IMG/VR virus record: IMGVR_UViG_3300038443_002533
Span: 128,001 to 192,000 of that record
Origin: a virus
Lineage: Duplodnaviria; Caudoviricetes
Reading direction: 5' to 3' (one strand)
DNA length: 64,000 bases
The translations under genes were made by a program, and so were the position numbers. Positions 6,906-39,393 of this stretch are shown piece by piece (position 1 is the first letter of the stretch; every line of letters begins with the position of its first letter). The notes beneath the pieces are model-generated. The model searched no databases, was not told where the DNA came from, and saw nothing but the letters and a program-made list of their open reading frames with translations.

Positions 6906-7976
6906 ATGCAGTTGAATTTTGATGAAGAGTCGACTCCGGTCGCAGCAATCGACCAGAACGTCGATACCTCCCAACGCGTCAATGCATCGGACAAGCGCAT
7001 GATCAATGCTCTGACCGACGTGAACCAGCTGGTGCCGTTCAAGTACAAGTGGGCGTGGCAGATGTACAACGACAGCTGCGCCAACCACTGGATGCCGCAA
7101 GAATACAAGATGGACACGGACATTCAGCAAATGGCGTCGGGTCAAATCACCGCCGGTGAACGTGCCCGTATCGAGCGTACGGTCAGCGCGCTGGTGCGTA
7201 CGGTGGGCGGTGCTGGCGAACTGGCCATGCACATCTACCGCCACATCACAGCGCCGGAAGCGCGCCAGTACATCCTGCGCCAAGGCTTCGAAGAAGCACT
7301 GGTTCCGCACGCCTACGCCCACATCGTCGAGAAACTCAAGCTGGATGAAAATGTGTTGCTCGATCCGGCCACCCAGCCGGACACGTTCCATGACAAGCAA
7401 CGCTACATGGAACCCACGATCAAGCTCCTGACCGATCCGCTGTTCCGGACGGATTCGACGGAAAACATCCAAGCTTTCATTCGTGAACTCGTCAAGTACA
7501 CGTGCGTCATGAAAGGCATGTTCTCGATCGTTGACTTTACGCGCATGCTGGCCCTCGGCCAGCAGAACAAGATGCCGGATCTGGTCCAGCAATTCTCGCT
7601 GATGTTACGCGACCAACAAGCCCAGATCGAATTCGGTCTGGAAGTCATTCAGGCGATTCGTAACGAGAACACCCATGTTTGGACCGTGGAACTCGTGAAC
7701 GAAATCAAGGCGATCTTCAAGGAAGCGCTGGCGTGGGAAGTGGCACACGCTATCCGCACGGCTCGTCCGGAAGACGCGGAACAGGGTCAGCAGTTCAGCC
7801 ATCTGCTGCAACTGGTGGCCAACCGCATGGCTGGCAAGATCGGGGTCGGGGCGATCTTCCAGCCACAAGCCAATCCGTTCCCGTGGATGGCGCAAGCGCT
7901 CGGCCTGCAAGAGCACAAGCAGATCACGTCGGCGCCAGTCGAGAACAAAGTGTCCACGACGCTGGACTGGGAATAA
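6906..7976 (+). CDS. ribonucleotide reductase beta subunit (NrdB/R2) homolog with degenerate metal site
   Basis: VNQLVPFKYKWAW, NHWMPQE, YRHITAPE, NPFPWM match proteobacterial NrdB. Ligand motifs are altered: EEALVPHAY, MKGMF, RDQQAQ. Confidence 0.9.
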   Translation: MQLNFDEESTPVAAIDQNVDTSQRVNASDKRMINALTDVNQLVPFKYKWAWQMYNDSCANHWMPQEYKMDTDIQQMASGQITAGERARIERTVSALVRTVGGAGELAMHIYRHITAPEARQYILRQGFEEALVPHAYAHIVEKLKLDENVLLDPATQPDTFHDKQRYMEPTIKLLTDPLFRTDSTENIQAFIRELVKYTCVMKGMFSIVDFTRMLALGQQNKMPDLVQQFSLMLRDQQAQIEFGLEVIQAIRNENTHVWTVELVNEIKAIFKEALAWEVAHAIRTARPEDAEQGQQFSHLLQLVANRMAGKIGVGAIFQPQANPFPWMAQALGLQEHKQITSAPVENKVSTTLDWE

Positions 7977-9391: not shown

Positions 9392-10513
9392 ATGCGCTTA
9401 TTTTTCGGGAGTCGAAAAATGCAACAAAACTTTACAGCGTTTGCCAAACCCAAGCTGGGTGTGATGATCGGCCGTTTCTCGTTCATCCACCGTCAGCACG
9501 AACGTACCCTGCAAATCATGGCGGCCGAGAACGACTATATCCTGGTCATGATCGGTTCGGCGAATCGCTGCGTGTCCAAGAAGAACCCGCATGAATTCGC
9601 TGTGCGTGCCGAGATCATGAGCAAGCTGCTGCGCCGGCTCAAACCGGACGGGCAGTTTCGCATCGTGTCGCTCAACGATACCCTCTACAACGAGGAACGG
9701 TGGAAGATGCGGGTGTACGGGGCTGGCGAGCAGTACGCGCAGCGGTGTGGCATCCATCCGGAACGCATCACGCTGTATGGGACCGACAAGGATGAATCGA
9801 CCTACTACCTGAACTCCTTCCCGCAATGGAAGACCAAGGACGTGGGGCGGGTCGAAGACATCGACGCTACGCGGCTGCGTGAGCTGTGGTTCCGTCATTC
9901 GCAGACGGTACCCGGTGGTTTGCGTCTCCAGGACCATCTGGTCCCCGAGATGTTCGACTACCTGAAAGACGGCCACAAGTTCAACGAGGCGTTGCAGAAG
10001 GACTGGTATTACCTCACGGTGACCGAGCCGGATAAGTTCAAGGACTATCCGTATCCTGAAGCCTTGAACGTCATGTGCGGCGATGCAATCGTGGAATGCG
10101 CTGGCCATATCCTGACCGTGACCCGGTCCGGTGATCTCGGCTATGGGCAAGTCGCACTGCCAGGTGGCCACAAGAACAAGAACGAAACCGCGTTCAATGC
10201 GGCGCTTCGGGAACTGTTCGAGGAAACCAACTTGCGTGTGCCGGAGCAGACCATCCGTAACTGCGTGCAACAAACGTACCTGTTCGACCACCCGGGCCGG
10301 ACGCTGTCGTCGGTGCCAAAATCGACGCTCGGCGTTTACGTCAAGATCGAGCCGCGTGACGGCAAGTTTCCCCGTGCCAACGGCGGGGATGATGCCGCGC
10401 ATCCGACGTTACCGAATGGTGGGATCCGCTGGATTCCCAAGTTCGACATCATCAGCGGTAAAGTCAAGATGTGGGACGACCACAATGACATCGTGGATTA
10501 TTTCACGGCGTAA
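9392..10513 (+). CDS. bifunctional NMN adenylyltransferase / Nudix ADP-ribose pyrophosphatase (NadM-Nudix, NatV-like)
   Basis: IGRF..HxxH, GSAN, NP, LND.LY, YYLNSFPQW, IDAT.LR; Nudix box GGHKNKNETAFNAALRELFEETNL. Confidence 0.9.
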   Translation: MRLFFGSRKMQQNFTAFAKPKLGVMIGRFSFIHRQHERTLQIMAAENDYILVMIGSANRCVSKKNPHEFAVRAEIMSKLLRRLKPDGQFRIVSLNDTLYNEERWKMRVYGAGEQYAQRCGIHPERITLYGTDKDESTYYLNSFPQWKTKDVGRVEDIDATRLRELWFRHSQTVPGGLRLQDHLVPEMFDYLKDGHKFNEALQKDWYYLTVTEPDKFKDYPYPEALNVMCGDAIVECAGHILTVTRSGDLGYGQVALPGGHKNKNETAFNAALRELFEETNLRVPEQTIRNCVQQTYLFDHPGRTLSSVPKSTLGVYVKIEPRDGKFPRANGGDDAAHPTLPNGGIRWIPKFDIISGKVKMWDDHNDIVDYFTA

Positions 10514-35315: not shown

Positions 35316-35780
35316 ATGGCTGGATTTGTGAAATTGATGTCGAATGAAAACCTGCCGGACGCAAGTCCGTTCAAAGGCTATCAGCTGATCAGCTTACCGG
35401 ACGCTGGCAAGGTCGAATTCAAACGTAATGAGCGAGGTCTCGATACGTGTGTGATCTACACCCCGGAGCATGATCCAGAAGAATACCTGATGTACGGCAA
35501 TGCGTATATCCTGAGCGACTCGGGTAAAACCATTGCTTCCCATGGCACCAACGTGCCCTGCGCATTGGAACCGGGTCAAGAGATCAATGACGCTAAGGTG
35601 GCGGTTAGCGCACTGCTTACGCTGGAACCTGACGATCTGAAAGCGGCCCTTTGCCATCTGGTTGCAACTAAGCCGGAAACCATCCGTGTCATGGGTGGCG
35701 TCATAGCCAATTTGGCGCGGGCCGGAAACGAAGCTGCTATTTACTCAATTCGTCCCGCGGTCGAACACATCAGCACGTAA
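35316..35780 (+). CDS. conserved hypothetical phage protein (GNAYILSDSGKTI motif)
   Basis: SD AGGAG; motif common in phage proteins. Confidence 0.75.
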   Translation: MAGFVKLMSNENLPDASPFKGYQLISLPDAGKVEFKRNERGLDTCVIYTPEHDPEEYLMYGNAYILSDSGKTIASHGTNVPCALEPGQEINDAKVAVSALLTLEPDDLKAALCHLVATKPETIRVMGGVIANLARAGNEAAIYSIRPAVEHIST

Positions 35781-35956
35781 CACCGATCAATGCCCAAGTC
35801 AGTTATTCCCTCCAACCGATTTCGTCATGAAAGATGGCGCATCTGGCTAAAAGTGAATTCCAAGGCCTGACTAGGGCGCCCCTTTGGCTTTATTAGTTGA
35901 AAGAGGTGTTGTGCCACCACACGCCGTCAATCGAGTAGACTAATAAAGCCTTCCCT

Positions 35957-36032
35957 TCCCCGATAGCTCAGCCGGTAGAGCGACGGACTGTTAATCCGCA
36001 GGTCCCTGGTTCGAATCCAGGTCGGGGAGCCA
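35957..36032 (+). tRNA. tRNA-Asn(GTT)
   Basis: TCCCCGA/TCGGGGA, loop CTGTTAA, G-CCA end. Confidence 0.96.
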
Positions 36033-36039
36033 CGAACAT

Positions 36040-36860
36040 AAAAGCTGGAATCTAAGCTAGTAGAGTTATCCTTTAACTTGTGCTGGGGTTGTGTTGTTGA
36101 CACTTTACAACTAAGGCTTGGGTTCCGCCTTTTGTGTTTAACTGTCTTTGGGTTTGACTTGGATCGACCGCGAGTCGCAATTACCATACGAGCGATTACG
36201 ATTATCGAAGAACATATTGGCCTGACTCACAAGTCACCTGGTCAAACCCACCCTTTTTCAGAGGACGCACGTGAGGTCGTGCAGGCTTGAGTATCAAGTC
36301 TAGAATGGGCGTGGCTCCTTACACCTACGGGGATACTTAAGGGAGTCGAGGGAAGTGAGATCTCATCAATCTCCACAATGTGGGTGCAACCCACCCCAAT
36401 ACTCGCACACAGGAACGCCGTGGAAATCGGTGAACAACCAGGAGATGAGCCTGGTCCTCTGAGCTATTCTAAATAAAGGTACTGATGAGCCGTGGAAGTC
36501 GGCCCCTGTGCATACAGGCAAGGTTGCAAACCCTTCGAAACATCTCTTGCGCTTCAAGATACAACGAGATGTATACCAATGGACTTAACAGTGGTAGCCG
36601 TTGCTCTTGTCACCTCCGGGGTCTTGATGGGAGTCTAGTAGCGTTTCTGACACGAGCGCTGAAACTGTACGACTGGTTCAACCCTGTCGGCGTCTGTCAA
36701 ACGTCGTGGAGAGAGGATCAGTAAGTTGTACAACGCGTAAGCTGTGCCGCACGCTCCTAGTGAGCGGGTTCAGTGAGAAGCTAGGTCGTGCAAGACCAAG
36801 TTGTGCAGCCATTGTGAGATTGCGTCGGTTTGGCCAGACTGGCGCAGTTGTATCGGTGTG
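36040..36860 (+). ncRNA. candidate large structured ncRNA (~800 nt)
   Basis: No credible ORF. Perfect 10-bp long-range helix 36149-36158/36241-36250 plus many hairpins. Confidence 0.55.
36478..36577 (+). ncRNA. type I hammerhead ribozyme-like core with multibranched stem II
   Basis: GGTA-CTGATGA-G...C-GAAA-CATCTC...GAGATG-TA-TACC. Confidence 0.6.
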
Positions 36861-36931
36861 AGGCGGGGGAGGGGTGCAAAACTCTCCCCCGTTTCTTATT
36901 CTTTTTATGCCGTCAAAATCTAGGAGTAACT

Positions 36932-37669
36932 ATGTGGAACTTTTTCAAACGACTGTTTGGCGGTGGTAAACGACAAGAACCCCAGATCGATAAGCCGAGC
37001 GGATCGGCGGGCCGCTGCACACCGTACATGACACCGCTCAGTTCCATCAAACCGAAGTCACCGGAGCCCGTTAAAGAAGATCTGAAGCGCCCCAACGGCC
37101 AATGGGAAGAAACGGAAAACCAACGGCCGCCCGAAAGCGTATGGCAACAAAGCTTGCGGCGCGAAATCAATAAGGTTGAAAAACGTCAACGCTACAATGA
37201 AATTTTGAGCCAAGCTGGGATGGATGTTCGCGCCAGGCGATTCGAAGCCGTGCAACAGTCCGTCGATCGGGTTCGCCAAGAAGCACTCAACTCCGCCACC
37301 CCCCAGATGAGTCGACCGCAATTACCGCCCCATGCGTTGACGGATTCGGCGCGCCTGGATTTGGTCCGAAGAGCAACGCTGAGCACCATGTCCCAGCGCC
37401 CAGGATTACAAGCTGGGCTAGACGCGGTTCAGCGTGACATCGAAGCGCGCCGTCGACAGAACGAAGAAGACGAACGTCGTCGCCGTGAAGCCGATGATGA
37501 AGACCGTCGCCGTCGTAACAACGATGACACATTGAATTTGTTGGTAGGCTTATCCTCGATAATTTCTGACACCGTATCCTCATCGTCTGATTCCAGCCCC
37601 AGCTCGGATCCGTTCAGCGGCGGCGGTGGTTCCTTTGACGGCGGTGGTGCTTCTGGAGATTGGTCATGA
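36932..37669 (+). CDS. hypothetical protein with acidic/Arg coiled coil and Gly-Ser tail
   Basis: SD AGGAG before ATG 36932; ends FSGGGGSFDGGGASGDWS. Confidence 0.75.
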   Translation: MWNFFKRLFGGGKRQEPQIDKPSGSAGRCTPYMTPLSSIKPKSPEPVKEDLKRPNGQWEETENQRPPESVWQQSLRREINKVEKRQRYNEILSQAGMDVRARRFEAVQQSVDRVRQEALNSATPQMSRPQLPPHALTDSARLDLVRRATLSTMSQRPGLQAGLDAVQRDIEARRRQNEEDERRRREADDEDRRRRNNDDTLNLLVGLSSIISDTVSSSSDSSPSSDPFSGGGGSFDGGGASGDWS

Positions 37670-38739: not shown

Positions 38740-38823
38740 TAGTATGTAGTACGTAGTAGGTAGTGCATGATTTATCGGTGGAGATGGTGGGATCGAAAAC
38801 TCCATTCACCATCGAGAAAAATC

Positions 38824-39393
38824 ATGAAGAAAATTGCATCTTTGTTTCAACGTAACTATGACGGCGATCGTCAAGTGCGTAATGAAGTCGTTCCGGGTTC
38901 GGAATGGGTAATCCACGGCGAAGGGTATGCGACCCGTAAATGGGATGGCATGGCTATTAAGCTGGAGAACGCTCAGTTCTTTAAGCGTTATGATGCGAAG
39001 GCTGGCAGAACACCGCCCCCTGAATTCATTCCTGCCCAACCGGCGCCTGATCCACAAACTGGCCACTGGCCTGGTTGGGTGCCGTTGCAAGGGAAAGAAC
39101 TCAATCGCGTAGTAGCGGCGTATCAAGACAGCGGCATCACGGAAGACGGCACATTCGAATTCTGTGGACCGACGATTGGTACCCGCCATGGCGCCAACCC
39201 TGAACGGCTCACCAAGCACATCCTGGTGCCCCACGGGCAAGACATCCTGGCCGACTGTCCGCGTGACTTCGATGGGCTCAAAGCCTATCTGGCGAATGCG
39301 GATATCGAAGGGGTGGTGTGGTGGCATCCGGATGGTCGTAAGGTCAAGATCAAAGCAGCTGATTTTGGCCTCGTCAGGCACGCAGTAATCTGA
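38824..39393 (+). CDS. DUF5565 / RLIG1(C12orf29)-like ATP-dependent RNA ligase
   Basis: Motif I TRKWDG, KRYD, GHWPGW, GTFEFCG, L.PHG, motif IV EGVVW, motif V KIK. Confidence 0.75.
   Translation: MKKIASLFQRNYDGDRQVRNEVVPGSEWVIHGEGYATRKWDGMAIKLENAQFFKRYDAKAGRTPPPEFIPAQPAPDPQTGHWPGWVPLQGKELNRVVAAYQDSGITEDGTFEFCGPTIGTRHGANPERLTKHILVPHGQDILADCPRDFDGLKAYLANADIEGVVWWHPDGRKVKIKAADFGLVRHAVI

Follow-up and report, generated by a model that had tools for sequence, protein, structure and literature searches.

Organisation of the locus

The stretch of DNA analysed here (the window, 64,000 nucleotides, whose positions are used throughout) belongs to a virus record of 272 kb that is complete and bears terminal repeats, and the genome encodes a chimallin homolog that scored above the Pfam cut-off. 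Chimallin is a marker of the nucleus-forming jumbo phages. On the plus strand of the window, like the other parts of the RNA unit described below, a hammerhead motif at 36478-36577 lies in an ORF-poor stretch between a tRNA-Asn gene and a protein-coding gene whose ATG stands at 36932. The same element was found in three other metagenomic jumbo-phage lineages, represented by the contigs L006/L007/L009, L141, and L093, and the comparisons that follow draw on these four lineages.

The tRNA-Asn (GTT; 35957-36032; Rfam tRNA, 69.5 bits; also predicted by ARAGORN) is the last canonical tRNA of an RNA-gene array upstream of the motif. Directly 3' of it lies a separate conserved hairpin module (GGAATCTAAG...TTGGGTTCC; 36045-36140 in the window, 9300-9395 in L006, and 6925-7020 in L141), which we place outside the hammerhead RNA proper because in L141 it is split from the next domain by a 67-aa ORF and in L093 it is absent. 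This small ORF, which encodes a hydrophobic membrane protein and had no other relatives in the protein collection, separates the tRNA array from the 5' domain in L141 (7039-7242, 67 aa) and in L093 (2059-2262); the window and L006 lack it. Since it precedes the 5' domain in both L141 and L093, the conserved unit begins at about 36149.

That unit opens with a 5' domain (36149-36256), an elongated hairpin of about 100 nt closed by UGGGUUUG/CAAACCCA and conserved in the four lineages, for which RNAalifold gave 28 pairs, five of them compensatory. An insertion of about 213 nt (36257-36470) follows in the window only; it is absent from L006 in the alignment, and in L141 and L093 the 5' domain runs directly into the hammerhead. 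Downstream of the hammerhead, the 3' domain (36574-36835) is a conserved structured RNA of about 260 nt with 54 pairs, of which 19 are compensatory (RNAalifold, four lineages). It is followed by a terminator-like hairpin of 14 pairs with a T-run (36860-36905) and, in the window and L006, by TTATGCCGTC ahead of the ATG of the next gene at 36932. The order of terminator hairpin, conserved TTATGCCGTCAAA, and start of the next gene was seen at 36860-36934 of the window and at 9930-10002 of L006, and the TATG within this terminator-to-gene motif may presumably be a late-promoter element of phiKZ-like phages. The arrangement as a whole is best explained as an RNA-only transcription unit made up of the tRNA array, the 5' hairpin domain, the hammerhead, the 3' domain, and the terminator. 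A gene for an RNA ligase (38767-39393; PHROG RNA ligase, E = 9.8e-72; Pfam RLIG1, 29.5 bits) is located 2 kb downstream.

A hammerhead core in register

Every core base of a hammerhead is present and in register at 36478-36577. Read from the 5' end, the first half consists of GGTA, CTGATGA, the hairpin G-CCG-TGGAAGT-CGG-C, a single C, the hairpin CCTGT-GCAT-ACAGG, a second single C, AAGGTTGCAAACCCTT, and a C; the second half consists of GAAA, CATCTC, a 19-nt loop, GAGATG, T, A, and TACC. The 5' strand of stem I (GGTA, 36478-36481), defined by the sequence and our descriptor and supported by covariation, leads into the core segment C3-A9 (CTGATGA, 36482-36488), which is invariant in the four lineages except at N7, where T is replaced by C in L006. 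After the stem II region, an invariant C-GAAA (36536-36540) supplies a candidate for C11.1 followed by G12, A13, A14, and A15.1, with G12-A14 corresponding to GAA at 36537-36539. Stem III with its loop spans 36540-36572: CATCTC (36541-36546) pairs with GAGATG (36566-36571), and the helix is extended by the 15.1-16.1 pair A36540-T36572 to give ACATCTC/GAGATGT, in which three pairs show compensatory changes and of which both length and loop vary by lineage. From the register of the core, the scissile bond is predicted to follow H17, A36573 of the triplet GUA, so that the 3' strand of stem I (TACC, 36574-36577), likewise backed by stem I covariation, would form the first bases of the 3' product. 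The topology is that of type I, with an open stem I, a canonical core, and canonical stems I and III. The coordinates that the first-pass annotation had given for stem I, the core, stem III, the cleavage triplet, and the cut after 36573 all hold on the sequence.

Our own type I descriptor, which called for stem I, CUGAUGA, a paired 10.1/11.1, GAAA, stem III, UH, and the return strand of stem I, matched once in the window and once in the whole 272,470-bp genome, both strands and relaxed stem lengths included. Sequence simulated with a first-order Markov model of the genome's dinucleotide content gave three loose matches in 25.6 Mb, an expectation of about 0.015 per window; no match had as many as seven pairs in stem III. 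Given that about 250,000 windows had been scanned, this chance rate is suggestive only and by itself indecisive, and it is the comparative evidence that settles the hammerhead reading. Measured against shuffled sequence, the window copy was not more stable (z = -0.04 to -0.58), and the homologs gave z = -1.3 to -1.6.

The putatively branched stem II region

The part of the element that sets it apart is the region of stem II. Hairpin 1 (GCCG-TGGAAGT-CGGC, 36489-36503), whose first base G36489 is G10.1, appears in the minimum-free-energy fold of the four lineages and is read as stem II proper. Hairpin 2 (CCTGT-GCAT-ACAGG, 36505-36518) behaves as a variable spacer, with a stem of 4-6 bp and loops that differ between lineages. 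Hairpin 3 (36520-36535) is invariant in the four lineages and can be drawn in two registers, AAGG-TTGCAAAC-CCTT or GGTT-GCA-AACC. Together with single-C linkers, hairpins 2 and 3 make up a 33-nt insertion that exits the 3' strand of stem II beside G12.

The three hairpins had been proposed in the first-pass annotation; they are present and coincide with the minimum-free-energy fold. Their description as a junction closed by one G-C pair stands in so far as the region does contain several hairpins, but it reads better as a 4-bp stem II helix (GCCG/CGGC) with a UGGAAGU loop and a two-hairpin insertion at its base, on the 3' strand. The proposed G10.1-C11.1 pair is possible; however, G36489 pairs either with C36503, within the GCCG/CGGC hairpin, or with C36536, and never with both. 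The choice between them shifts a single pair and leaves the topology unchanged.

Sequence conservation is distributed unevenly over this region: identity between lineages is about 97% in hairpins 1 and 3 with the linkers, compared with 60% for hairpin 2 and 35% for stem III with its loop. Because hairpins 1 and 3 are invariant, their pairing is deduced from complementarity and not from covariation, and the multi-helix junction that they would form with hairpin 2 is a structure we infer on that footing. The same invariance points to a sequence-specific contact, for which a tertiary partner, a protein, or a ligand would fit equally. Hairpins 1 and 3 are most likely engaged in sequence-specific contacts by which the active fold is either stabilised or controlled, with a pseudoknot between loop 1 and the 5' flank and a docking of the hairpins on the large RNA as candidates. 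For the former, a UUCY flank about 8 nt upstream of stem I (TTCT at 36467-36470 in the window) is compatible with loop-1 GGAA through three core pairs in all four lineages, a compatibility that arises solely from one-sided C/U changes opposite an invariant G. The GGAA-UUCY pseudoknot is thus a weak candidate for the tertiary contact between stem I and loop II, and we treat it as a lead. Another pseudoknot, between loop-1 GAAG and CUUC (36533-36536), was rejected as incompatible with the active fold, as it would remove C11.1 from the core.

Sequences closely resembling hairpin 1 (CCG-TGGAAAT-CGG) and the GCA-loop hairpin (GTGGGT-GCA-ACCCAC) occur in the window-specific insertion of about 213 nt, which contains no hammerhead core; this insertion may be a docking module that was duplicated, or it may compete for those contacts. 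The heptamer CAAACCC was likewise seen twice, in hairpin 3 (36520-36535) and at the 3' end of the 5' domain (36243-36250), so that GGGTTTG (36151-36157) could pair with either copy and a conformational switch would be possible.

Homologs and covariation

Each of the three other lineages was reached by a different route. L006, a 269-kb chimallin phage contig that is identical at this site to L007 and L009, carries the hammerhead at 9522-9618 and was found through the protein encoded downstream; L141 (8.4 kb; hammerhead within a model match at 7361-7466) was found through an upstream 154-aa protein that is 62% identical to that of the window; and L093 (65.6 kb; hammerhead at 2385-2468) came from a metagenome DNA word scan. 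In the comparison with L006 and L141, the neighbouring proteins are 28% identical to those of the window for the downstream gene and 60-62% identical for the 154-aa gene.

A covariance model trained on the window and L006 alone, and then applied to L093 and L141, aligned L093 in the hammerhead register with a score of 67.6 bits and L141 with one of 110 bits. Because MAFFT misplaced the short stem III of L093, the covariance-model alignment was used for the four-lineage analysis, and in it 96.8% of cells were paired, as against 28-45% when the 3' partners were slid. Compensatory double changes were found in six of 24 pairs, two in stem I, one in hairpin 2 (G-C to A-U), and three in stem III, in a sample of four lineages of which three share most of the sequence. 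A further inner pair of hairpin 2, U-A to C-G, is a reading of the aligned rows and stands outside this count. Among the 15 core positions counted, substitutions were confined to the two that are free to vary: at N7, L006 has C in place of U, and at H17, L093 has C (the classic GUC) where the other three lineages have A, with G in none. Stem III has 7-11 pairs and shrinks to five with a GCCA loop in L093, and stem I has 4-5 bp, with a G.A mismatch in the L093 copy. Folded alone, the four copies adopt the same minimum-free-energy architecture, the exception being stem I of L093, for which a shifted register is preferred.

Searches for further copies were mostly empty. Positions 36030-36830 had no match in cultured phage records (blastn, distant mode), the downstream protein had no cultured-phage match (tblastn), and two scans of bacterial and archaeal genomes found no copy. 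Exact and degenerate word scans of viral contigs returned L009 as the sole true match, with L130, L137, and L138 dismissed as chance matches, and a metagenome 17-mer scan, for which the word was too short, yielded L093 as the one real new locus. The loci L002-L005, found via the RNA ligase, contained no related RNA; weaker relatives of the downstream protein were not syntenic; and contig L143 (P0014), reached via the 154-aa protein, gave no covariance-model match. A 322-kb relative (L139) has the tRNA array and lacks the hammerhead RNA, which is therefore not universal in the group.

Relation to known hammerheads and alternative explanations

At Rfam gathering thresholds the window contained tRNAs only, with none of RF00163, RF00008, RF02276, and RF03152 at or above its cut-off, and a whole-genome search with the Hammerhead_1, Hammerhead_II, Hammerhead_3, and RAGATH-1 models did not report the site. 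In a permissive search, RAGATH-1 (RF03152) was the sole ribozyme match; it scored 20.5 bits (E = 1.7; cut-off 56.3), and its alignment required 41 nt to be inserted into loop II and 23 nt into the upstream hairpin. The RAGATH-1 consensus resembles our element in having a single G-C stem II that closes a loop, together with an upstream element; with a score below the cut-off and an empty whole-genome model search, membership in that family was rejected. Since the standard models miss the element, annotation pipelines will overlook copies of this kind.

The closer relationship is to the type I hammerheads of phages and prophages (RF00163; PMC3088659), which share the core, the open-stem-I topology, and the NUH cleavage site. 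Perreault et al. 2011 (PMC3088659) described natural hammerheads with stem II reduced to one pair, in which short stems and pseudoknot-type contacts between stem I and loop II are common, and it was proposed there that hammerheads in phage transcripts process long RNAs; no branched stem II and no insertion beside G12 in active hammerheads appear in that survey of natural hammerhead variation. Unlike the RF00163 hammerheads, the present element carries a conserved 33-nt two-hairpin insertion at the base of stem II, and it resides within a non-coding RNA unit beside a tRNA-like array, whereas phage hammerheads of the RF00163 type lie between protein genes. A full-text literature search recovered no paper joining hammerheads with nucleus-forming or phiKZ-type jumbo phages.

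The conserved core and the compensatory changes across lineages are the decisive evidence and strongly support the hammerhead reading, and we regard the element as very probably a true type I hammerhead ribozyme, maintained by evolution and unusual in build, with a predicted cleavage site after H17. That a hammerhead variant with several hairpins at stem II lies inside a large conserved non-coding RNA, which it would process, had been suggested from the window by itself and is supported by its retention in four lineages, among which stems I and III as well as hairpin 2 show compensatory changes.

An inactive look-alike, in which a structural piece of the large RNA falls into register by coincidence or survives as a dead relic that does not cleave, would account for the failure of the Rfam models to recognise the element, and most of the element is invariant, so that conservation alone cannot tell catalysis from another role. 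The insertion beside G12 is unusual and could impair catalysis, and for the whole RNA, RNAalifold prefers a long-range GUAC/GUAC pairing that would sequester C3. That fold, however, came from the MAFFT alignment in which stem III of L093 is misplaced. The restriction of core changes to N7 and H17 would not be expected of a dead relic, and stems I and III are kept by compensatory changes even while stem III goes from 7-11 pairs to five; we therefore consider an inactive element very unlikely. A still different view would take a 79-aa ORF at 36485-36724 as the real feature and the RNA motif as incidental, seeing that it offers an ATG at 36485, an AGG a few bases upstream, and 79 open codons. The ATG becomes ACG in L006 through the N7 change and the indels between lineages are not multiples of three, from which we conclude that the ORF is not a gene; it has no Pfam match, its substitutions track base pairing rather than codons, and the probability that it is the functional feature is negligible.

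A ligand-gated hammerhead would keep the catalytic reading and add to it a sensor, formed by the insertion and loop 1, that makes cleavage dependent on a partner: a small ligand or metabolite, a protein of the phage or its host, or the state in which the large RNA is folded or assembled. The near-identity of hairpins 1 and 3 and their linkers beside a divergent hairpin 2 and stem III suggests a sequence-specific contact of the kind such a sensor would make, but plain tertiary contacts that stabilise the fold explain the invariance equally well. The insertion lies at stem II, where engineered aptazymes carry their sensors, GGGUUUG could allow a switch by pairing with either CAAACCC copy, and the look-alike hairpins of the window-specific insertion also fit this picture; against it, neither a ligand nor a binding-pocket motif was found, nor any riboswitch family that matches, and we know of no natural ligand-gated hammerhead. 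We judge gating unlikely. If it did occur, the sensor would turn self-cleavage on or off and thereby time the release of an RNA of about 330 nt during infection by a nucleus-forming phage. Engineered allosteric hammerheads (aptazymes) are artificial and have the sensor attached to the distal end of stem II. The element in the window is like them in having an extra folded domain joined at stem II to a core that is otherwise canonical, and unlike them in that the natural insertion exits the 3' strand at the base of stem II and has no known ligand; were the extra hairpins to regulate cleavage, they would to our knowledge be the first natural counterpart of the stem-II aptazymes.

Predicted processing and product RNA

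Returning to the preferred reading of a maintained type I ribozyme, we propose that the hammerhead would fold co-transcriptionally, after which, following the mechanism of the class, the 2'-OH of A36573 would attack its own 3' phosphate. Hammerhead chemistry leaves 2',3'-cyclic phosphate and 5'-OH ends. The upstream piece would accordingly keep the whole ribozyme and carry the cyclic phosphate, and the downstream piece would be an RNA of about 330 nt with a precise 5'-OH end, running from 36574 to about 36905, where the terminator would end it. As stem I holds the product by 4-5 base pairs only, the product should dissociate. The tRNAs of the array can be freed by tRNA-processing enzymes, and nothing else visible at the locus would set the 5' end of the downstream RNA. 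The most economical reading, and a plausible one, is that the ribozyme sets the 5'-OH end of this conserved structured RNA of about 330 nt. No phage-encoded RtcB was found, so resealing of the hammerhead ends would need prior end healing.

Hammerheads are the best-studied small ribozymes, and on the present analysis the element appears to be a new structural variant of this known class, set within an undescribed phage RNA. The 5' end that it would create belongs to a conserved structured RNA lying at the end of the tRNA/tRNA-mimic array of chimallin-type phages, and both the biology of phage hammerheads and the identity of the conserved RNA become directly testable here.

The surrounding RNA recalls GOLLD and ROOL in its size class, its ornate covarying structure, its phage setting, and its adjacency to tRNAs. 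We know of no hammerhead embedded in either of these RNAs. Searches of 35700-37200 at E up to 10, and of L006 and L093 at E up to 5, assigned the surrounding RNA to no Rfam family, including GOLLD and ROOL, both of which are named in Weinberg et al. 2017 (PMC5737381).

In two of the related lineages, a further conserved non-coding module (GGGCTYTAATTCAGAAA..GGGAAGAATGAACGCTT..ATAGGGCGGTAG) follows the 3' domain, at 2830-3080 in L093 and at 7780-7912 in L141. No Rfam family matches this module, neither the genome of the window nor L006 contains it, and in L093 it ends in a T-arm-like GGTTCGAATCC.
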